Assembly (NCBI GenBank): GCA_964016885.1
Contig: OZ024744.1
Location: 76,756,001-76,820,000, forward strand
Reading direction: 5' to 3'
Source: Eledone cirrhosa
Taxonomy: Eukaryota
Length of the DNA: 64,000 nucleotides
Shown: positions 591 through 46,193 of the stretch, piece by piece
Layout of the letters: every line of letters starts with the position of its first letter
Position numbering within the stretch: the stretch's first letter is position 1
Translations under genes and position numbers: made by a program
Notes under the pieces: generated by a model
What the model was told of the DNA's origin: nothing
What the model saw: the letters and a program-made list of their open reading frames with translations, nothing else
The model's database searches: none

Positions 591-3500
591 ATCTTAGTCT
601 TAGTCTTAGTTCCTCCAGTCCCTTGTGGAACATTGGGTGACGAGCTTCCTCCACTTGATCCTGTCACTGGCGGCCCTTCTAACACCTCTCCAGGTAATTC
701 CCATCTACTGCAGGTCCTCCCTGAATGTGCTCCGCCATGTTTTTCGTGGTCTTCCTCGTTTTCACCTGCCACCTTCTGCTACCCAATCCATGGCAATATG
801 AGCAGGTCGATCTGCCGGCAAACAAAGGATGTGGCCCGCGAACCGCCGTCTCCTTTTCCGGACAATGTCCCTTAACCTCTCCAATCCTGACCTCCTCATC
901 ACTTCCTCGTTGCTAACTTGGTCTCTCCATGAAATTTTCAATATGGTCCGAATGCAACGACAGTGGAATACATCAAGCTTGTTACATACACTTTCCGTAC
1001 TCTTCCATGTCTCACAGGCATATATCGCTGTTGGTACTACAATGGACATGTAAACACGGAATTTGACGGCGTTGTCGATGGAACACCTGGACCATACCGG
1101 ACGGAGTCGCTAGAAGACCGCCGCTGCTTTTCCCAGCCTTGTGCGCACATCCACCTCAGCATCCCCATCGTCAGAGATGTTGCTGCCAAGGTATTGGAAG
1201 TGGTTTACACACTCAATGTTACGCTGACCAACCATGATGGGAGGATTTGGAGGGTCACCTGTCGACATGGTCTTGGTTTTTTCACAACTGATGCGCAGGC
1301 CAACTTTCTCTGCATTGTCATTTAGGACGTTTGTAATCTCTTGCAGGTCTTCTCGGGAATGGCCTATCACTGCGATGTCATCGGCAAAGTCCAGATCGCT
1401 TAATCTCCTTCCATCCCAGCTGATGCCAAAATGAAGATCACTCATTGTCTTCTTCATGATGAAATCGATGACAATGAGGAAAAGGAAAGGCAAAAGGATG
1501 CAGCCCTGTCGAACCACCATCAAGATGTCAAACATTTCCATGTTTCCGTCCTTTGTCCTAACGCAGCACCTGGAATGTCGGTACAGCGACCTGAAGATGT
1601 TAATATATTTCTCTGGGACACCGTAGAGTCTTACAATCTTCCACAATGACTCCCGATGAACACTGTCGAAAGCTTTCCTGAAGTCAATGTAGTTGACAAC
1701 AAGGAACTTGTGGAACTCCCGACATTATTCAATGATATTTCGGAGAGTGAAGATCTGCTCTGAACAAGACTTTCCACTGCGGAAGCCAGCCTGTTCGTCT
1801 CGAAGATGACGATCTACTTCTGCTCTCAGCCGGTTCAGGATGACTGTGCAGAATACCTTCCCTGGCACTGATAGCAACGTGATCCCTCTCAAGTTGTTGC
1901 AGTCGCTGAAACAGCCCTTCTTCGGTAGTGGTACAATCACTCCATTTCCCCATTCCTCCGGCACCTCCTCTTCTTGCCAAATCACATTGCATAAATGGGT
2001 GAGCTGCTCCTCTATTACATCCTTGCCGTGCTTCAGAAGCTCTGCAGGAATCTCATCCAGCCATGCTGCTTTGTTATTCTTTTGGCAGCAGATGGCCTTG
2101 GCCACCTCAGCTCTTGTGATGTCGTCTAGTCGTACATCCAGCCGGTAGCTCGCTTCCTCCCAGCCAAGCTCGAAGACTGTGTTAGGGGATGGCTGATTGA
2201 GGACCTCACGAAAGTGTTCGTTCCACCTCTGGGCCTGCTCTTCACTGGCTGCAAGCATCCGACCATCTTTGCTCTTGATTGGCAAGCTGCTTCCACTTCG
2301 TCCTCCAGTTAGCTCCCTGACGATCCGGTACAGCATCTTGGAATCATTTCGATCTGCTTCCACCTGTACCTCTGCAGCCCGATCTTCTAACCACTGGCGC
2401 TTGTCTTTTGGACAGCTCTTCTTTACTTCCTTGTCAAGACGTCTGTACTCTTTGTCCACTTCCTTCCATTGCTGTCGAGTTTTGGTTTGATCTCTTTTGT
2501 TCTTAACATCCTTCCTCTCGTCAATGAGATTCCATGAAGTACTGCTGATCCACTGTTCCCAGTTGGTCCCCCTTCTTCTACCAATAACTACATCAGTACT
2601 CGCCCTGGCTGCCTGAGCAAACATCTGCCACTGGTCTTCACGGTTCTCTGCGTGCTGTAGTTCTTGGAACATATTCCTGATCTCCAGGTAGAATCCCTTT
2701 GACGTGCCTTGGTCTTGCAGGCTTGCGACAGCATATGGCCTCACAGACCTATTTTCTTTGTTCTTCTTCAACCTCAAGCGGATTTTTCCAATCACAAGAT
2801 GAGGGTCAGATCCGACGTCTGCCCCTCAGTAGGTGCGAACATCCAAGAGAGAGGAACGTCACCTCGTGCCAATGCAGATATAATCAATCTCATTCCTGGT
2901 GTTGCCATCAGGGGAAGTCCATGTCATCTTGTGAATCCGCCTATGGGTGAAGAATGTATTCCCAATGGAGAGGTTGCTGATACAGCTCAGGGACAGCAAC
3001 CGTTCCCCGTTGTTATTGGTGGAATCAGCTGAACCGTTGGGGCAAATGGCTGAATGCATTTCTCTCCTGTCTCCATCCAGCCTGGCATTGAAGTCACCAA
3101 TCACCAGCCTAATGTCTGACCTGGGTGTTTCCTCTAGGACATCCTGCAATTGGATAAATAAGGTATCCTTATCTTCATCTGAGGCACCTTCAGTCGGGGC
3201 GTAGACTTGCACTACGGTCACCTTGGTTAACCTTGTACTCAATCTGACAGTAATAATTCGTTCACTCACTGGTCTCCCTCCCACAAGAGCCCGTGATACA
3301 TCTCCGGTGAGGATGATACCAACTCCGTGGACATGGTGGTCATCATCATCGGAGTAGAGAATAGTCATGCCTCCGCTGTCGAGTCGTCCCCGTCCTATCC
3401 ACCTCGTCTCGTTGATGCCCATGATGTCAAGGCGATATTCTCTCATCTCTTTCAGCATCTGCTCCATCCGCCCGTCCCGAAAGAGCGTGCGAACATTCCA

Positions 3501-3725
3501 GGTGCCTACTCTTGTGTTTGATTTGGCGTTGAAGATAGGACTTATCCGCGGTCAGGCCTCCTTTCGGCTTTGACCCGGCCCCATCATAGGTGCATCCAGG
3601 GATGACGTGTCTTCTCTTTTTCGTCGTTTATGTAGCGGTGAAAAGTTTTTACAGGGGTAGGGCTGCTAACCCCACGCCCCAACCCTCCTCCTTTCTCAAC
3701 CGGGCTAGGGACCGGCTAAGGCGGA

Positions 3726-3728
<3 letters not shown>
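591..3728 (-). mobile_element. RTE-clade LINE, near full length, decayed, inserted in (TA)n
   Basis: APE endonuclease (GINETRW, QVYAPT, GDFNA, NEIDYI) and RT (LRGITLLS, QAGFR, RQGCIL, DLDFADD, YLGS), C-terminal YACETW; 3' tail of (GACTAA) repeats; (TA)n on both sides. Confidence 0.93.
762..3467 (-). pseudogene. RTE endonuclease-reverse transcriptase ORF broken by stops/frameshifts
   Basis: Collinear fragments 2859-3467, 1725-2795, 1110-1646 and 762-1049. Confidence 0.9.
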
Positions 3729-3788
<60 letters not shown>

Positions 3789-3795
3789 AAAATGC

Positions 3796-3873
3796 TTCTC
3801 TGATGATCTTTGCTTTTCCATTAATATCTACGTGATATCTAATGTTTTGCAAAGTGAAACTGTACAGTTAGGG
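3796..3873 (+). ncRNA. Hammerhead ribozyme (copy 1 of tandem pair)
   Basis: ttct-CTGATGA-t-ctttgc...gcaaag-t-GAAA-ctgtacag-TT-aggg; palindromic stem III actgtacagt; GUU site. Confidence 0.8.
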
Positions 3874-4319
3874 CCATTTGAATAGGTAAATATTTATATT
3901 ATATTTTTTAATTTTGATTAATTTTAATTGTATATTAATTTTGATTTATTTTGAAAAATTGGTTGAATTTTACTTGTTCTGCTTATCTTGATATTAAGTT
4001 CTGGTATATCAAATTATTACCATAGAACCACCTTAAATCATAGACACACTATATATTTCCGGGGGTACATTGTACCCTCAGATATATATTAACCTTATTC
4101 AATATTCTCCAGTAAGTAGAGAAAAATCTTGTCGTTCTATTTAGTTACTAAAAATCTTTTTTGGTAGCGATCATAGACGGCTAGTCTATGATTTCCCGCC
4201 TTCACTATACACCAACTTATTTATGGGTCACTTTCACGACCTTTCAGACTTGTATTAGTTGGAGTGAGGTCATATATTTTGTTGTTCCTGGGGTTTTTAA
4301 CCCTAGGATAGGAAAATGC

Positions 4320-4397
4320 TTCTCTGATGATCTTTGCTTTTCCATTAATATCTACGTGATATCTAATGTTTTGCAAAGTGAAACTGTACAGTTAGGG
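4320..4397 (+). ncRNA. Hammerhead ribozyme (copy 2 of tandem pair)
   Basis: Same sequence as 3796-3873, 524 nt downstream. Confidence 0.8.
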
Positions 4398-4745
4398 CCA
4401 TTTGAATAGGTAAATATTTATATTATATTTTTTAATTTTGATTAATTTTAATTGTATATTAATTTTGATTTATTTTGAAAAATTGGTTGAATTTTACTTG
4501 TTCTGCTTATCTTGATATATATATATATATATATATATATTTCGTTTCTGAATTTGTTTAGCAAGATTCTTTGTCTGAAAACGTGTGTTGAAACCGATAT
4601 TGTTATACTTTGGGAGGGTCATGTTGCCAATAAGAAACACACGCACCAGTTGCTTTCACTTCATTATAATAAATTTATAAATTTAGGAATTTATAAATTT
4701 CCGGTTGGTTGGTTGGTTCCACAACCAGATGGTTGTTTATATATT

Positions 4746-4787: not shown

Positions 4788-4899
4788 TGGGGATTCTTTT
4801 CTTTGTGTTTGTGCCTCTCCTTTGTTCTGTCCTACGCGATTTTGTTTCTGTTTGTGTGTTGTGGGCACACAACACACACACAGAAACAAAAAGGCGTAG

Positions 4900-6645
4900 G
4901 ACAGAACAGGGACCTCTGGAAGTTGTCCATATGTCCCAGGCGGAAAGTCCTACCGAACAGATTGGTGAGTTCGTCGTCTTCGACGCCTAGAGTCTCCCCC
5001 GAGCACGTCGTCGCACTTGTAAAGTACTAACCCCCTATAGAATGTTGAAGTGGAGTCTCCACTGATTGCTGTGCCCGCTTGACAGAGGACTGTGAGCGCC
5101 TGGGCGCATTCAATGTACCAGGCGCCCATCTTCTTCGGTCTTTGCTTGACTCAGGACTGCAGCTCCGTCAGCGAGACAAGTTGTGGGAAGGCCTGTCTCA
5201 CAATGCCCACACTGGTTGGTCGGTGAGGAATGCCTGGTGATGCCGTAGCCTCAGCGCATGTTTGCGCATCATTAGCCACGGCATGCCCAGCCCTCCGTTG
5301 GAAGGGTGTTGACAGCAGATGGATCTTCTCACCAGTGGAGCCTTCTTCCACAGGAACTGGAAGAGCATGCGTTCCATCTTGGTGAGGTATTCACGGGGAC
5401 AAGGCACGACAATCAAGTGGTAGTAGATGACGGACGCTATGAAAGTGTTCGCCACCTCCGCTCGACCTTTCAAAAGACAGTTTACACTCTGCCCACTTCT
5501 GGGTGAACGCAAATACCTTGGCCATGACCTCGTTCCAGTTTTTCTCCACCTGGAGGTCTGGACCGAACCAGACCCCGAGCAATTTCACCGGTCTGTCCGT
5601 CCAGCGTCCAACAATGCTGTCGGACGTCATCGGTTTGCCTCTCTACGTTCCGAGTTGCAAACCGACAGACTTGTCCGGGTTCAGTTTTGCTCCTGTGAAC
5701 CTTTCGTATTCCTGTAGTACGTTGCCGATTACCTCGATTTCCGAGGTTTTCGACACCATTACCGTCACGTCGTCGGCATAAGCAGACGCCTCTTTTCGCA
5801 GTCCCGCAAAAGCTCCAACGTCCGCAGTAGTGGCTCTAGAGTCAATGCGAACAGAATGGAGGAGAGAGGGCATCCCTGTCGAATGAAACGCATGATTGCG
5901 AACGGCTCCGATAGATAACCGTTCACCTTGACCTTCGAGCAGATGTTAGGGTGCATCGCCTTGATCCAGCCTCTGAAAACGGGACCGAAACTGGCCGCGA
6001 TGGTCGACTCTTTCGAATGCCTTAGACTGATCTAAATTGATCAGAGCCCCACGGAAGCCGGGTTTACACCCCACCCTCTCTATGATGTATTGCATGAGGT
6101 GGAGGTTGTCGTATATGGACCTGGTCTGGATTGCACACATTTGCGCTTTCCCTACCAGGTTCTCGACGACAAGCGCCAGCCTCGTTGCTAGCACCTTGGC
6201 CAAAATCTTTAACTCTGTGTTGAGCATAGTTATGGGCCTGAAATTGTTTATTTCGTCCCCCTTGTTCTAGTCTTTCCTGATCAGCGTTACTATGCCCCTG
6301 CCTGCAGAACTGGTAATTGTCCCGCAGTAGACGGCTTCGAGGACGCCAGAGAACAAGTCCGGCATGCCTATGTAAAACTGATAGGGTAGACCATCTATAC
6401 CGGGTGATTTGCGTTTCCTGCAGCGGCCCAGAGCGTCCCGTATCTCAGTGGCTGTGATCGATCTTTCGCAGAACTCGGCCTCCATGCTCGAGAGACGCGG
6501 CAGGCCGTCGAGGTATGAACCAAAGTCCATTGCCTCGTTCGGTGCACCGTCGTTCTGCTCAAACAGTCACGCAAAGTGTCGCTGAAAGGCCGCGCACATA
6601 TGCCTGGGGTCAAGTAGCACACGTCCGATTTAGGATTTCAAAGAC
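4900..6645 (-). mobile_element. Tx1/L1-clade LINE ORF2 fragment, decayed
   Basis: KSPGIDGLP, LNTELKIL, LDQSKAF, RQGCPLS, AYADDVT, GGLGMP motifs over several frames. Confidence 0.9.
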
Positions 6646-12949: not shown

Positions 12950-13398
12950 TTATCGCTAAATATTGATGTTGATTTAGTTATTAATATTAATATTATTGGG
13001 CACCCACTGAAGATTCGTAAGAGCCCACTTGCATAAGAATCCATTGATTTTACACAAGTTTCTACATAACTTGGTATAATTACACCCACCATGTAGAAAT
13101 CTTACAATGAAATGATTCGGTTGGGAAATGAGATCTTTAATATATCTCATATAAAATAATACAGCTAGGTGTCCACACAATACAATATAGTTAGCACTCC
13201 AAACGTTGAATTGGGAATATACTCCGGTATTTCCTAATATTTGTTGAGTGAGTTGGAAATTTATGGATAAATATATATCAGATTTATAAGAACCGTAGAG
13301 CTAATATTTATTAAAATAACAGAATAAAGGTTAAGCAAAGAATCGCTGCTTTCACCCTTAACGGGATCTTCTGAAGATCCCGTTAAGGGTGAGAGCAG
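12950..13398 (-). mobile_element. Penelope-like non-coding fragment (CAGAAGA-HHR family) ending in a palindrome
   Basis: Matches 41900-42015 and 10650-10715; palindrome 13346-13398 centred on 13372; left boundary uncertain. Confidence 0.6.
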
Positions 13399-14101
13399 GG
13401 TGCTCTTGCCGTAAGCCTGAAGCTTGCCCCCTTCAACAGCATGCAACACACCAGCTGTAATCTATGAAGCTGTGGTCACTTCCAACCGACCAAACGAACC
13501 ACAGGAGGTCAAATCATATGTGGGCATGGCGGAGGGCCGATTCAAGGAGCGTTTCCTGAACCACCAGTCTACCTTCAGATACCCGGACAGACGTTCATCC
13601 ACGAAACTCGCGACCCACGTATGCTCCCTCAAGGACTCAAGTATAGGCTACTCCATTCAATGGAAAGTCATCACTAAGTCCAAGCCATACGCAAGGGGAA
13701 ATCCGACGTGTGGCTTATGTATTGACGAACGAATAACTATCCTAAAGAGATTACGCAATAATGATTGCCTAAACACGCAAAGTGAATTTTTCACACGTTG
13801 TCCACACGTCACCAAACATCTATTGAATAACTACAAGGCTCCGGACTGATTCTTTGTAATTTTATTTTTAATTTTATTTTAACTTTATTTTCAACCTAAA
13901 AACTTTCCGGACTTTCGCAGTTATCTCCCTTACACCTCTCACACGCAGTCTAGTATTGCCTGTGTGAAATGACCGAGTTTCTGCGCATGCGCGTTCGTAC
14001 GGTTGTCCTTCCTGTTCCTATAACCATACACATCTCTAGCTGAAGATCCGCTAAGGTGAAACAATTGTTCTCGGTATGGTGAACTAACTGTTGTGTAACC
14101 A

Positions 14102-14104
<3 letters not shown>
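13396..14104 (+). mobile_element. 5'-truncated Naiad-like Penelope element (GIY-YIG domain and 3' pLTR)
   Basis: VIYEAVV...SYVGMAEG.FKERFLNH...C.LC..E...LN; highly similar to 40790-41496. Confidence 0.9.
14023..14080 (+). ncRNA. Hammerhead ribozyme in Naiad-like pLTR
   Basis: CTGAAGA-t-cc-gctaa-gg-t-GAAA-caattg-TT-ctcg; distal accatac/gtatggt pairing. Confidence 0.7.
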
Positions 14105-14292: not shown

Positions 14293-14944
14293 GAAAAGTG
14301 TGTGGGAAGAGAGTTCAAAGGGTGTGTAGGGGAGTGGTGGAGAGACATATAGCGAAAAGGGGGTGGGAGGAAACGGTGCGAATGAAATTAAAAATAAAAA
14401 TAAAAATAAAGCATGATCAAAATAAAATGAAATGAAATAAAAATAAAAGCATGATCAAAATATATAATATTAAGGATACTATTTATGGTTATGTATATAC
14501 TAAAACGTTTTATAGTTATGTATATTTTAAACCCTAAATAGGGAAGGTGAGTAATTTATTACTACCTTATTACCAGTAAGATAAATAGCTCAATGTAATA
14601 ACATCAGTTGTTCTACAGAGCAGTTATATAGAATTCACAAGAATCAAAGCTATGTTCAAAGCATTTATTCACTTACAATTGTTTCATCCAAACCTAGGCT
14701 TGGAGTCTTCGGAGCATTTTTCAATGTTTGTACACATAATTGACCTCCTTTCCAACGCAAGAGACATACAGATACATATATACATATTGATGTACAGTGG
14801 AGTGACATATATTATACTATATTATTTCTGTATAGCAATTCAAATTCAAAATCAAAATCAAAATTAAAATTAAAACGAAATTAAAACAAAATTAAAATAC
14901 ATTCAGCAGTTAACACAGATAATCCAAGAGGATAGTTTGTTAGT

Positions 14945-15688
14945 CAGATGTAGTAGTTAGTGTATGCGTTAGTTACACGTGGAGCATGCAAGTGTGTTTC
15001 ATTTATATATTTTTATTGTGTGGCAGGGTATTACATGTAATACAAGCACTTTAAGCGGGTAAGTAAGAGTATTATAGTGGTTGTAGTGGTAAGGTATTTT
15101 TTGTATATAATAAAAGAGTATGTGTGCAGAAAAATAAAAATTAAAAATTAAAAAAATAAAAAAGAGAAGCAAAAGAAAGTTATGGTTTTCGTATCCACCA
15201 CCATTTTCACATTCGGGAAAAGTAATATATAGTTTTTACATCCATCACATAAGTAACGATGATTCCGTATTGGATGTTTTATGCATTAAATTAATCATTT
15301 TATTTTAGCTTATTACGGCTCAGTGTTATTTAATCTATAATTTAGCAATAAGCTAAAATAATTTAATTTAATGCATTAAACATCCAATACGGAATCATCG
15401 TTACTTATGTGATGGATGTAAAAACTATATATTACTTTTCCCGAATGTGAAAATGGTGGTGGATACGAAAACCATAACTTTCTTTTGCTTCTCCTTTTTA
15501 TTTCTCTGCACACATACATTTTTATTATATACAAAAATTACCTTACCACTACAACCACCATAATACTCTTACTTACCCGCTTAAAGTGCTGTATTACATG
15601 TAACACCCTGCCACACAATAATCATATATAAATGAGACACACTTGCATGCCCCACCTGTAACTAACGCATACACTAACTACTACATCT
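14945..15688. repeat. Large imperfect inverted repeat (arms ~350 bp, spacer ~30 bp)
   Basis: agatgtagtagttagtgtatgcgttagttac... mirrored by ...gtaactaacgcatacactaactactacatct; inner arm ends ttagcttatt/aataagctaa. Confidence 0.9.
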
Positions 15689-15883
15689 AACTACTACATG
15701 CTATTTAGAACACTCGTTTAACCGCTTTGCTTCGCTCCGAAGAAAAGATATTATCTCGAAAATTAAGAACATTTAAATAAATCTAAGGTAAAAGACTAAT
15801 TGTCAACAATATCTTTTGCATTTGCATTCTTTATTCTATGTCTATACCGGCATTGTTTTGGCTTTATTATACATATACAAACG

Positions 15884-16286: not shown

Positions 16287-16329
16287 ACGCTGTACTAGTT
16301 TCAAGCTTGTTAGCTATCGTCAGCAACGT
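16287..16329 (-). ncRNA. Minimal hammerhead ribozyme
   Basis: Reverse strand acgttg-CTGACGA-t-agct-aaca-agct-t-GAAA-ctag-TA-cagcgt; GUA site. Confidence 0.8.
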
Positions 16330-34237: not shown

Positions 34238-34295
34238 ATACCTGATGAAATCACCGGATTCATATGGAACCCGGTCATTGAAATGATCATAGTAT
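34238..34295 (+). ncRNA. Minimal hammerhead ribozyme
   Basis: atac-CTGATGA-aatcaccgg...ccggtcatt-GAAA-tgatca-TA-gtat; palindromic stem III; (TA)n about 50 nt downstream. Confidence 0.85.
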
Positions 34296-38045: not shown

Positions 38046-38059
38046 ACATATATATATAT

Positions 38060-38884
38060 AGTGGTAGAACACTGGAAGGTAATATCCGTAGTGGTAGAGC
38101 ACTCAGTCAATGGGACGAGTTAGGTAGAAGTGGTTACACAACAGTTAGTTCACCATACTGAGAACAATTGTTTCACTTTAGCGGATTCTCAGCTCGTAAT
38201 GGGCATGGTTATACGGAACAGGAAGGACAACCGTACGAACGCGCATACGCAGAAACCCGTCACTTCACACAGGCAATACTAAAATGCGTGCGAGAGGTGT
38301 AAGGGAGATAACTGCGAGAGTCCGAAAAGTTTTTAGTTGATAAGAAAAAATATTGATGTTGTTACAATAATTCATTCAATCCGGAGCTTTGTAGTTATGC
38401 AATAGGTGCTTCGAGACGTGTAGACAACGTGTGAAAAATTCATTTCTCGTGTTTAAGCAATCACTATTGCATAATCTATTTATAATATATATTCGTTCGT
38501 CAATACACAGTCCACACGATGGATTTTCCCTTGCGTATGGATTGGACTTAGTGATGGCTTTCCATTGAATGGAGTAGTCTATACTTGAGTCCTTGAGGGA
38601 CCATACGTGGGTCGCGAGTTTCGTGGATGAACGTCTGTCCGGGTACCTAAAGGTCGACTGATGGTTCAGGAAACGTTCCTTAAATCCGCCCTCCGCCATG
38701 CCCATATAGGATTTGACCTCCTGTGGTTGGTTTGGTCGGTTGGAAGTGACCACAGCTTCATAAATTACAGCTGGTGTGTTGCATTTCTGTTGAAGGGGGA
38801 AAGCTTCGGGCTTACGGCAAGAGCACCCTGGTGGGGTGTTGCTCCTAGGGCTGCTGGTGATGTGGGCCTTCATGTTCTTAGCGC
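38060..38884 (-). mobile_element. Inverted 3' pLTR/GIY-YIG copy at the 5' side of the Naiad-like element
   Basis: Reverse complement of 40738-41496 plus 38885-38985; its HHR (38152-38209) has the mutated core CTGAGAA. Confidence 0.9.
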
Positions 38885-39138
38885 GGTATGGTGAACTAAC
38901 GGTTGTGTAACCACTTCTACCTAACTCGTCCCATGGACTGAGTGCTCTACCACTCCGGATATTACCTTCCAGTGTTCTACCACTATATCGTCTCCAGCGC
39001 CGGTCAGCAGATACTCTTCACTCCGTAGAAGTTTGGCTTTTAGCAGATTCTTCACCACGTGCTAGTTTGGCTTACTACCCTGAGAGCGCTCTCTATATCC
39101 TCGTGTCCTACACAATTTTGTGTCTCATCAACGTCAGT

Positions 39139-41246
39139 ATGGATTTATACGAACTGGATTACCCCCTGAAGAACATTCCAACTCCCTCCAACCATGTTTA
39201 CCAAAAGCTTCTCCTACAAAAAGCGGAAGATGTCGTCAGACGCTTAAGATGGCGAGCCCTAGCTTTTGACGGCAAAATTACAAGCACCTATAACACCTTC
39301 AACCTGAAATCGAGAGTCTACCCCCCTAAGGTAACTGAACTTGCTCTTTTCGAGGCGGACTTTCTTGACTTAGTCGCTAACATTTCCTTTCGCAAACACC
39401 CTAACACCTTTCAAACTAAACTCAGAAATGATATTAAGAAATTTAGGTTTTCTAATAACACCTTCGTCTTTCTGACAAAACTAATAATATTTACGAAGTT
39501 GACAACACCACTTTCCGCCACCTGGCCCATAACGCTATTACTTCCAAATATAAGAAAGCTAACCCTATGGCCTACCACGACATTAATACAGAAGCCAAAG
39601 AACTTGCCGCCGCCCTTAAGGTAGATAAGCAGCTACAATCTCTAGCTAAGCGGGAGACGTTCCTCACCCTGAAAGATCACAAGGTAGACTTTACTTCTAA
39701 CCCCACATGTAGACTAATAAACCCGGCACGCACAGATATGGGACTAGTCACTAAGGCCATACTTAGAAACCTAGTTAAGACCATTAGGACCAAGTCCAAC
39801 CTGCCCCAGTGGGAGAACAGCGACTCCGTAATTAAGTGGTTTAACTCCTTAAAATCCAAAAGAGCGAAGTTCACACAGTTTGACATTGTCGATTTTTACC
39901 CGTCGATCTCAGAGACCCAGTTAAACAAAGCGTTGGACTTCGCTACCACTTACACGACCGTCGATGGTTTAGACAGGGAAATCATCGCTCACTGCCGGAA
40001 AAACCTTCTCTTCAACAACGGAGTAGCTTGGGCAAAGAAGTCTACAACTTCAGACTTATTCGACGTCTCCATGGGATCGTTTGACAGTGCTGACGTATGT
40101 GACTTGGTTGGCCTATTTATTTTAGACATATTACGTGTTAGATTCCCGGACTTCCACACGGGAATATACCGCGACGATGGACTGACCTTATCGATCCATA
40201 AAAGTGGTCACGACCTCGACCGGTTTAAAAAAGACTTAGCTTCTACCTTCAATGAGTTAGGACTTAGGATAACAGTAGCTACCAACCTCTCTAGCGTAGA
40301 TTTCTTAGACATTAATTTAGACCTTCGCACACACACCCACAGACCCTTCCATAAACTAAACGAAAATCTCAATTACATTCACAAGGACTCATGCCACCCT
40401 CCCACTGTTTTTAGAAACTTCGTAAATAATATCAGTACTAGAATCTCAAACCTCTCCTCTAATAAGGCTATCTATGACAGAGCAGCACCCTACTATAAGA
40501 CGGCGTTAGCTAACAGCGGCTTCTCACAACCTATCACTTACTCTCCCACTATCAACAACAGCAATAAGAAAAGAAAGCGCAACAATAGACAAACTATCTG
40601 GTTATCTCCTCCCTTCTCACTCAACGTTAAAACCAATGTAGGCAAAATATTTCTAGCCCTCTTAGATAGAGACTTCCCCATAGGTCATAAATACCGCTCC
40701 ATCTTTAACCGACACAAAGTAAAACTGGTATAATCCTGCGCTAAGAACATGAAGGCCCGTATCACCAGCAGCCCTAGGAGCAACACCCCACCAGGGTGCT
40801 CTTGCCGTAAGCCCGAAGCTTGCCACCTTCAACAGCAATGCAACACACCAGCTGTAATTTATGAAGCAGTGGTCACTTCCAACAGACCAAACGAACCACA
40901 GGAGGTCAAATCCTATGTGGGCATGGCGGAGGGCGGATTTAAGGAACGTTTCCTGAACCATCAGTCGACCTTTAGGTACCCGGACAGACGTTCATCCACG
41001 AAACTCGCGACCCACGTATGGTCCCTCAAGGACTCAAGTATAGACTACTCCATTCAATGGAAAGCCATCACTAAGTCCAAGCCATACGCAAGGGGAAATC
41101 CGTCGTGTAGACTGTGTATTGATGAACGAATAAATATTCTAAATAGATTATGCAATAGTGATTGCCTAAACACGAGAAATGAATTTTTCACACGTTGTCC
41201 ACACGTCTCGAAACACCTATTGCATAACTACAAAGCTCCGGATTGA
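39139..41246 (+). pseudogene. PLE RT plus GIY-YIG endonuclease ORF with two lesions
   Basis: 1-nt frameshift at ~39470 (F-[A]-DKT) and in-frame TAA at 40731-40733 (KVKLV*SC). Confidence 0.88.
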
Positions 41247-41412
41247 ATGAATTATTGTAACAACATTAACATTTTTTCTTATCCACTAAAAGGTTTTCGG
41301 ACTTTCGCAGTTATCTCCCTTACACCTCTCGCATGCAGTTTAGTATTGCCTGTGTGAAGGGACGGGTTTCTGCGCATGCGCGTTCCTTCGGTTGTCCTTC
41401 CTGTTCCGTATA

Positions 41413-41470
41413 ACCATGCCCATTACGAGCTGAGGATCCGCTAAGGTGAAACAACTGTTCTCGGTATGGT
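41413..41470 (+). ncRNA. Hammerhead ribozyme in Naiad-like 3' pLTR
   Basis: cgag-CTGAGGA-t-cc-gctaa-gg-t-GAAA-caactg-TT-ctcg. Confidence 0.75.
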
Positions 41471-41511
41471 AAACTAACTTTTGTGTAACCACTTCTATAT
41501 ATATATATATA

Positions 41512-42431: not shown

Positions 42432-42752
42432 ATGATATTAATAAATGGAAACTATATTTATAAAACCATATTTATTCTATTATATATATTTCAAGGGTAC
42501 CAAAACTTTGGTACGCACACATCAGATAAAATGCAAACTTTGTTTTATAAATATTGACATATCCATGAAGGAGATCTTAACGGTTCAAGTTTTTACGTTA
42601 AGATCTCCTTCCTGGATATGTCAACATTTATAAAACAACAATCTTTGTATTTTATCTGATGAGGGCGTATCAAAGTTTTGGTACCCTTGAAATATATATA
42701 ATAGAATAAATATGGTTTTATAAATATAGTTTCCATTTATTTAATATCATTG
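42430..42752. repeat. Inverted repeat (~150-bp arms) carrying HHR motifs
   Basis: Centre ...ggagatcttaacg-gttcaagttttta-cgttaagatctcc... Confidence 0.9.
42650..42706 (+). ncRNA. Minimal hammerhead ribozyme
   Basis: ttttat-CTGATGA-gggcgtatcaaagttttggtaccctt-GAAA-tatata-TA-atagaa; the opposite arm has the mutated core CTGATGT. Confidence 0.75.
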
Positions 42753-44287: not shown

Positions 44288-44445
44288 CATCTATATTAAA
44301 CTTTTATACTCTGGTATGTATTGAGTACCTTACTTACTGTAGTTACCTCCGATTCAACCCGGAATAACATAAATTTATATATATATAGACAGAGAGATAG
44401 ATAGATAAATATACACTGGTGTGTATGATTGTGTATAAAAGATTA

Positions 44446-46180
44446 TATTAATAAAAGGAATTCCAACTTTGTCTGATTTACTCGTTTTATTTACAATCCT
44501 TTAAAATTTATAATGGTATTAGAATGAAATGGTATGGTAGAATATTAAATGTTAAGTGTTAATTGAACAAGTACTTTCATGCTTTCGCAATCTTCAGGTT
44601 CATAATGTGTGGTGACAGTCAAGTTTGCAATTTTCAACTGTAATGAGATGGGTAAATTTTGTGCCTTATATACAGTGAAAAGTGGCTTCAGAATGCTAAA
44701 TCTTGCAAACTGTATTTCGACCAATCGGTGTGTAGTTTCACTGGATTACTAAAGCTGATTGGTTTAGGTGTCACGGTTGGTTGAGCATGTCTAACGACTA
44801 CTAATTGACCCTATCCAAAGCATCAATTCTTTTGCTATTTTTAGAAATGATGAAAATAGCATTTTATAGTAATCATCACCATCAACATCACTTTTATTAT
44901 TATTATTATTATTATTGTTGTTGTTGTTGTTAGTGGTCGTAGTCATAGTCATAGTAGGATTAATAACCCATTATTATTGTTCATTTAGCTTCGGTTTGAA
45001 TTTATCAATAAAATTCTTTTCTTTGATTTTTCTCTTGATTTCACTTGGGCTGTGTAATTTGTAGAATGGGAATATTATAAATATTCCCTGACCACATGTT
45101 GTTAGATGGTTACTTAGGAGTATCTGACGGACATGTGGGTCTCTGATTTGCTGTCGATGTACCCGTGCACGTTCCGATAGTGCATTTCCAGTTTGACCGA
45201 CATATAGTTCTTCACAATTCGGGCATTTAATGCAGTAAATTAGATTTCTGCTTTTGCAGTTTATATTTGCATTTGGGAATATTTTTCCAGTTTTTGTTTT
45301 CATATATTGACCGGCGTGTATGGATTGATATGTGCCACATCGACTATCATTGCATTTAGATACAGTGAATGATTGGTCTTTGTTGTTAAGGTCAAACTTT
45401 GTTTTTGTTAGTAATTGCTTCAAATTTTTCGGCTGTCTTTTACTAAGAGTCAAAGATCGATCAGTGATTAAGCCTTTTAATTCATTACTTTGAGCAATGA
45501 TCGGTAGGTTTGCTTTGGCAGTGTTGAAGATATTCTGGTGACATCGGTTGTGTGTCATTATAAATGGTATGACCGGTTCTTGGTTTCTTCTTCTTTGGGT
45601 TGTCCTAAGTTGTTGTATAGGTATTTTTATAGCCCGCTGTATGCCATTTTCTATAAGAAGAGATGGGTATTTTTATTTGAGCAAAAATTCTCTTAGTTCT
45701 GTTAGGCGTTTGTACCTGGTATTCGTATCTTCTACAATGGTACAAATTCTTCTGGCTAGGCAGTATGGGCTGTTGCGTTTTGTGTGAGGTGGATGGCACG
45801 ACTTAAAATTCAGATATTGATGGGTGTCTGTGTGTTTATAATATATATCCGTGGTGTCGTTTTTGATTATCATATCTAGGAATGGTAATTTGGTACTACT
45901 CATCTCTTTTGTGAATTGGAGAGATGGGTGTAGGTTATTCAGGAGGATATTGAACTCATCTAGAGTATCTAGAGATTCTGTCCAGATGATGAAACAGTCG
46001 TCAAGGTATCTCTTCCAAGATTTTTCAATGTACTTTCTAAAGTCAGTGCTATATTTTTCCTCTATTTCTTGGTAGAGTTGTTGTTCTAAGTATCCTATTC
46101 ATTCTAATACCATTATAAATTTTAAAGGATTGTAAATAAAACGAGTAAATCAGACAAAGTTGGAATTCCTTTTATTAATA
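44446..46180 (-). mobile_element. 5'-truncated Penelope-like element (Neptune-like) with inverted terminal copy
   Basis: RT WKRYLDDCFIIW, LPFLD, YYKHTD; GIY-YIG NCKSRNLIYCIKCPNC..YVGQT; 46097-46180 mirrors 44446-44528. Confidence 0.88.
44564..44602 (-). ncRNA. Minimal hammerhead ribozyme in PLE 3' pLTR
   Basis: Reverse strand tgaac-CTGAAGA-t-tgc-gaaa-gca-t-GAAA-gtac-TT-gttca. Confidence 0.85.
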
Positions 46181-46193
46181 TATATATACACAC

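Follow-up and report, generated by a model that had tools for sequence, protein, structure and literature searches.

The insert at 3787-4514 holds 1.4 units, truncated at the 5' end, of a non-coding family that occurs in multiple copies and has a unit of 524 bases. We propose, at a probability of roughly 0.55, that it represents a young animal non-LTR retrozyme which a Penelope-like element (PLE), acting in trans, copied into a (TA)n microsatellite, probably from a circular RNA. The identity as a non-autonomous, PLE-type retrozyme is very likely. The insert is likely a new family of this known kind of element; the supplements of the papers compared here may list the family or a relative.

Repeat structure and hammerhead motifs of the insert

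In the window, i.e., the whole 64-kb stretch of DNA analysed here, the insert proper comprises 728 bp, equal to 1.39 units of 524 nt, and has a GC content of 29% (Table 1). The initial annotation had judged repeats of about 210 bp identical by eye, and exact comparison extends this to 211 nt with 100% identity (3784-3994 and 4308-4518) at a spacing of 524. The (TA)n that it had seen on either side corresponds to (TA)29 and (AT)13, which the repeats overlap by ATA (3 bases) at the 5' end and by ATAT (4 bases) at the 3' end. Because the insert lies within (TA)n, no TSD is readable. Absence of a convincing open reading frame was also confirmed: the longest stop-to-stop frame entirely within the insert has 74 aa, and the one longer frame that overlaps it (179 aa) runs from 4491 and is mostly outside the insert. 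No coding remnant was detected in the internal 313 nt by tblastn against the PLE pieces of the window, and the six frames of the insert were unmatched. No further copies of the 524-nt unit were found elsewhere in the 64-kb window.

Table 1 Features of the insert and of hammerhead-bearing elements in the window
Feature	Position	Strand	Remarks
(TA)29, left part of target microsatellite	3729-3786	.	ATA microhomology with unit at 3784-3786
5' repeat, pseudo-LTR-like	3787-3994	+	truncated 13 nt upstream of hammerhead core
Internal segment, single-copy, 313 nt	3995-4307	+	non-coding, several hairpins; fold z -4.3; diverged copies in all four runs
3' repeat	4308-4518	+	same as 3784-3994; its end is the 3' end common to another family copy; X4 contigs pass into (AT)n at this point
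(AT)13, right part of target microsatellite	4515-4540	.	ATAT microhomology at 4515-4518
Predicted 524-nt monomer between cut sites	3870-4393	+	candidate circular RNA; circular fold
Hammerhead 1, type I, predicted	3790-3879	+	cut site from hammerhead consensus
Hammerhead 1 stem I	3790-3799/3870-3879	+	4 pairs, C.C mismatch, 5 pairs
Hammerhead 1 CUGAUGA	3800-3806	+	CTGATGA at 3800; second copy at 4324
Hammerhead 1 U.U mismatch	3807/3855	+	base of stem II
Hammerhead 1 stem II	3808-3813/3849-3854	+	six pairs plus long extension
Hammerhead 1 GAAA	3856-3859	+	
Hammerhead 1 stem III palindrome	3859-3868	+	ACUGUACAGU
Hammerhead 1 predicted cut after U3869	3869	+	triplet GUU; from consensus
Hammerhead 2, predicted	4314-4403	+	same sequence as hammerhead 1; predicted cut after U4393
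Hydra-like PLE, second 3' piece	13396-14103		
Hammerhead-like motif, palindromic helix III	16323-16293	-	
Hammerhead-like motif, palindromic helix III	34242-34291	+	
Hydra-like PLE	~38050-41500		DKT + CxCX5C motifs; hammerheads 33-36 nt from (TA)n
Hammerhead-like motif, palindromic helix III	42656-42700	+	locus at 42.4-42.75 kb, with a 5' inverted copy
Broken Neptune-like PLE	~44440-46190	-	GIY-YIG match, E 6.8e-7; clade by eye

All core letters of a type I hammerhead (CUGANGA, GAAA and UH, with helix I open) are present in both repeats, with GAAACTGTACAGTT at 3856-3869 and at 4380-4393 and with a stem III, ACTGTACAGT, that is a perfect palindrome. The G10.1-C11.1 pair closing helix II is absent and replaced by U3807.U3855. 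The motifs had been called intact, which holds for the complete core letters and is qualified by this U.U at the base of stem II, by the long stem II extension and by Rfam, whose hammerhead model did not match the insert at the gathering threshold or at E-values up to 10. Folded singly and without constraint, the hammerhead does not exceed shuffles in stability (z -0.1 to -1.1), and its fold differs from the active one. Scanning the window with a type I descriptor returned three loci, the pair in the insert and the minus-strand motif at 16323; 20 block-shuffled windows gave one locus in total and none with a palindromic stem III. Six chance hammerhead loci from a metagenome pattern scan, in which similarity was confined to the 15-17-nt pattern, and two loci from a viral scan, in which CTGANGA was absent upstream, were rejected. 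PLE hammerheads are described with a long helix II and a short helix I (PMC4209133). The axolotl retrozyme hammerhead HHR_Amex2 also carries U.U at the helix II base and cuts better as a dimer, with only 22% cut in an hour as a monomer (PMC7229834). Both the lack of an Rfam match and the U.U at the base of stem II count against our preferred explanation.

Stem III has a predicted energy of +1.5 kcal/mol as a hairpin and of -13.4 kcal/mol as a duplex between the two copies. The whole transcript with both repeats folds at -181.6 kcal/mol when constrained as a dimer, at -169.2 as two monomers and at -189.3 without constraint; the active dimer fold lies 7.7 kcal/mol above the unconstrained one, which speaks against our preferred explanation. 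A double change in stem III, T4387A + A4388T, turns the central TA into AT, keeps the palindrome and defines a subfamily. Counts of the two changes match in each of the four sequencing runs with family copies (six contigs in X1, two in X4, 18/29 reads in X5 and 15/31 in X6), and the swap may be one event inherited by one subfamily. Because of the energy models and this palindrome-preserving double change, a dimeric ribozyme is favoured over a monomeric one for the insert, in keeping with the earlier suggestion that the palindromic stem III would suit a dimer. The cut triplet varies between GUU and GUA, both of which are permitted. Among 40 of the 91 variants listed, the core sites 4324-4330, 4380-4383 and 4392 show no change; those at 4333 and 4373 disrupt pairing in stem II, barring partner changes that lie beyond these 40.

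The monomer is highly self-paired in the predicted fold, as are those of animal retrozymes. Its circular minimum free energy is -133.7 kcal/mol with 65% of the bases paired (z -6.0), and 0 of 60 shuffles are as stable; a comparison with 15 shuffles gave a z of -7.0. The circular z is -6.0 on the plus and -3.8 on the minus strand. Among 11 background windows matched for composition, the only one with a z below that of the monomer was a long inverted repeat, and the next was at -4.5. In 40 of the 91 circle-wide variants listed, 17 are at unpaired and 23 at paired sites, the latter with 10 that keep the pair, 2 that rescue each other and 11 that break the pair; random transitions are expected to keep 56%. 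Helices I and III are paired elsewhere in the predicted circular fold, a sequestration by which the monomer would resist re-cutting. It appears rather probable that 524-nt circles are produced at all.

Family copies and Penelope-like neighbours

Copies were searched for in four of seven runs (X1, X4, X5 and X6) with 3880-4460 as reference at 80% likeness; the best run contains 0.41 of the words, and the runs may be from another population or species. X1 yielded 408 contigs, with 123 at 99% or more, 138 at 95-99%, 106 at 90-95% and 41 under 90% alike, and matches elsewhere amounted to 18 contigs in X4, 149 reads in X5 and 127 reads in X6. Both unit junctions were found in other runs and the head-to-tail unit is hence a property of the family. 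Single-copy status, which would have indicated a simple local duplication, is not borne out by this multi-copy family in four runs. With direct repeats, type I hammerheads, several diverged copies and non-coding sequence, the retrozyme candidate of the initial annotation agrees with the sequence-level definition of such elements.

The few ends seen in family copies resemble those left by PLEs. One X4 contig (record 9) spans 4138 to the 3994/4518 end and thus has a different 5' end and the same 3' end as the insert; 4138 is preceded by 159 unrelated letters, of which the 30 next to it are TA-rich. Two X4 contigs run on into (AT)n at the 3994/4518 end, and summed contig depth, which is no copy number, drops in the bin after 3994 from 30,762 to 6,137 in X1 and from 50 to 0 in X4. 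Taken together, the insert, the two X4 contigs and the depth step look like a fixed 3' end (3994/4518) with 5' ends that vary, which is the pattern of target-primed insertion by PLEs. Circularly permuted ends had been expected; the few ends seen have this common 3' end and a variable 5' end instead. A joint that 'goes back 523' was rejected as evidence for circles, as it is due to the 57-nt repeat overlap in the reference 3880-4460. Piles of RAD read ends at 3966, 4012 and 4437 were not accepted as element ends; they lie on AATT sites, and both they and the heterogeneous loose ends past them were attributed to restriction or ligation. For the same reason, a putative 'tail' with its end near 4015 was discarded.

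Variation within the family extends beyond single bases. Behind window position 4345, X1 and X4 contain a subfamily with a different helix II extension, by eye also a hairpin. A deep contig of X1 joins 4434 to 3944 and lacks ~33 nt of the AT-rich tract, from which unit length likely varies (~491 vs 524 nt).

The repeats of the insert have 0 differences in 208 sites, which bounds their divergence at ~1.4% by the rule of three and upholds the recent insertion that the initial annotation had read from their identity. Five internal positions (4115, 4189, 4217, 4250 and 4283) differ from 98-100% of the X1 depth; because the repeats have no differences, these either arose before the insertion or stem from a different population or species. 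Both repeats carry T at 4353/3829, where all of the X1 depth and 29/33 RAD reads have C, and this shared rare base makes a single template likely.

The window is rich in repeats and contains RTE, L1/Tx1-like and Penelope-like elements, a content that points to an animal genome. At each end, the Hydra-like PLE carries a hammerhead and (TA)n; its ORF contains stop codons, and its 5' inverted copy, which is 95% identical to the 3' part, has a tail. Homolog search with the Hydra-like ORF returned 2369 relatives, mostly unnamed, and no clade name; DKT and CxCX5C define the Hydra clade, in which almost all PLE families insert in (TA)n (PMC8557442). The Neptune-like PLE has a hammerhead at 44597-44569 and a terminal inversion of 85 nt that is 100% identical despite the disrupted ORF. 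Both the Hydra-like and the Neptune-like PLE have hammerheads close to their 3' ends; in those scanned, U.U forms the base of stem II and the cut triplet is C/GUU. The three further motifs at 34242, 42656 and 16323 are located 55-126 nt from TA runs and are probably truncated PLE ends. Comparison of the insert with the PLEs of the window by blastn and tblastn gave AT-rich matches only, and no autonomous partner was found within the window. The insert is thus one of the local hammerhead-bearing, TA-associated ends, though without common sequence.

Other structured elements were noted in the vicinity. A Twister-P1 ribozyme-like match at 3679-3733 on the minus strand scores 36 bits (E 1e-5) against a gathering score of 67.2. 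It is found at the 5' terminus of a LINE of the RTE type, whose endonuclease and reverse transcriptase frames occupy 1110-3551 on the minus strand; this LINE and the insert are arranged head to head, with the TA tract between them. Twister variants have reportedly been seen in non-LTR retrotransposons (PMC8501958). A hairpin at 4823-4908 with 41-nt arms (93% complementary) lies close to the 3' terminus of an L1/Tx1-like element; many sub-threshold miRNA-like Rfam matches at 4817-4914 derive from this hairpin, which is unrelated to the insert. A fold-back element at 14941-15693 is ~87% self-complementary, and a 524-nt stretch of it has a z of -19.

Template of the insertion

Copying from 4518 back to 3787 crosses both cut sites, so that a cut linear monomer is excluded as template; we infer that the template was either a circle closed by ligation or a tandem RNA that had stayed uncut. 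The initial annotation had derived the 1.4-unit insert from a circular or tandem template. A template spanning both cut sites is retained from this, with the circle being just one of two that fit. Chances that a circle was the template of the insertion at 3787-4514 appear evenly balanced.

The circular route could proceed as follows. In a transcript over both repeats, the palindromic stem III arms would pair as one 10-bp helix, and the dimeric hammerhead would cut after 3869 and 4393. A host RtcB-type ligase would close the 524-nt monomer. The GIY-YIG endonuclease of a PLE would nick (TA)n, and its reverse transcriptase would begin at the fixed site 3994/4518, 125 nt downstream of the cut site, pass through both cut sites and halt after ~1.4 turns at the ATA microhomology, leaving two identical repeats. 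That all of this applies, i.e., an active, (TA)n-targeted retrozyme with an obligate dimeric hammerhead, whose re-cut-blocking circle is the direct template of the PLE reverse transcriptase with a fixed start, is a model that we regard as rather doubtful in its entirety. Animal retrozymes produce RNA circles (PMC7229834) and circle-templated copying has been proposed (PMC4209133, PMC7229834); PMC8557442 calls the role of the hammerhead in PLEs unclear.

An uncut linear tandem RNA accounts for the insert almost as well as a circle. The same element would have been inserted by a PLE from an uncut linear transcript whose source locus had at least 1.4 units, with a weak or regulatory hammerhead and circles as by-products, which we consider a real possibility, if short of even odds. 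The anole PLE protein nicks AT-rich DNA in vitro, starts at fixed internal sites, uses mainly unprocessed RNA and is indifferent to hammerhead mutations, hammerhead cutting being unnecessary for its reverse transcriptase (PMC11167929). Naiad PLEs without hammerheads still form the same partial tandems (PMC8557442), cutting occurred in vitro in only 1/9 Xenopus retrozyme dimers and 8/9 stayed uncut (bioRxiv 10.64898/2026.07.22.740005), and the U.U at the stem II base points in the same direction. However, a linear template requires a source locus whose two repeats already matched exactly, would seem to have no way to regain length lost through 5' truncation, and leaves unexplained a well-folded monomer that blocks its own ribozyme.

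Two further explanations would do without a mobile 524-base unit. The insert might be what internal deletion left of a single autonomous PLE, or a PLE end that was amplified locally in the manner of a satellite, and so be immobile as a unit; we consider this improbable. Its anatomy is that of PLE-type pseudo-LTRs, X1 depth is far greater over the repeat region than over the internal region, and local amplification from PLE termini has been proposed (bioRxiv 10.64898/2026.07.22.740005), but the internal 313 nt showed no coding remnant by tblastn, many diverged copies have both junctions, and a separate X4 copy has its own TA-rich flank. The 100% identity of the repeats, the lack of a second copy in the window and the fact that none of the listed contigs spans the stretch would also suit a simple duplication at one site, or a faulty assembly between the TA runs, in which the hammerhead arose by chance. 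Against this, which we consider very improbable indeed, stand the multi-copy family with both junctions in four runs and the lack of any palindromic hammerhead in 20 shuffled windows; even so, the insert locus could have been assembled with a wrong number of units.

Retrozymes, Penelope-like elements and (TA)n targeting

We return to the retrozyme copied in trans by a PLE as the preferred reading. As described in the portions of the literature compared here, animal non-LTR retrozymes (Cervera & de la Pena 2020, PMC7229834; Li, Clavereau & Pollet 2026, bioRxiv 10.64898/2026.07.22.740005) are non-coding, have less than 50% GC and are built of head-to-tail units, two or more consecutive ones of which carry a type I hammerhead. 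The insert shares these features, with two hammerheads 524 nt apart in 1.4 units, one per repeat, and likewise shares the weak palindromic helix III, the well-paired predicted monomer, the presence of PLEs in the same genome and the U.U known from axolotl HHR_Amex2. Its unit of 524 nt is above the 150-450 bp given in PMC7229834 and within the 51-972 bp of the 2026 preprint. In contrast to these elements as described there, the insert has only 1.4 units, a long helix II extension and a (TA)n site, and its cleavage and circle are predicted. In the literature listings covered, which took in few subscription papers, we found no TA-targeted animal retrozyme, and 'microsatellite' has 0 matches in PMC7229834.

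The insert is also similar to the pseudo-LTR partial tandems of EN+ PLEs (Hydra, Neptune, Poseidon) and to non-autonomous Chlamys elements such as MRC1 (PMC8557442, PMC4209133, PMC11167929), the latter also carrying pseudo-LTRs (PMC8557442). It has the 5'-truncated upstream repeat, the hammerhead near the 3' end, the long helix II with a short helix I, a 3' end that appears fixed in the few ends seen, and the (TA)n target of Hydra and Naiad families. Unlike PLEs as characterised in these sources, it contains no reverse transcriptase or GIY-YIG ORF, no 30-40 bp tail and no sequence match to the PLEs of the window. Retrozymes have been argued to be non-autonomous PLE derivatives that arose from PLE pseudo-LTRs (bioRxiv 10.64898/2026.07.22.740005). 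Plant LTR retrozymes also have two hammerhead-bearing direct repeats around a non-coding core, but are described with type III hammerheads, PBS/PPT, 4-bp TSDs and Gypsy partners (PMC7229834, 2026 preprint), whereas the insert has type I topology and a TA target, with TA on both sides.

The find itself adds one family to a known class, and its use is that of a test case. The single in vitro PLE system compared gave no support for circle-templated copying (PMC11167929). In a young, short and protein-free insert, one with both cut sites and a defined 3' start, the circle and linear-precursor models can be compared directly. The insert further suggests a link between retrozymes and (TA)n targeting by PLE endonucleases. 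If a circle were indeed the direct template of the PLE reverse transcriptase, the insert would provide a clean test of the unproven circle origin of PLE partial tandems that are longer than one unit.
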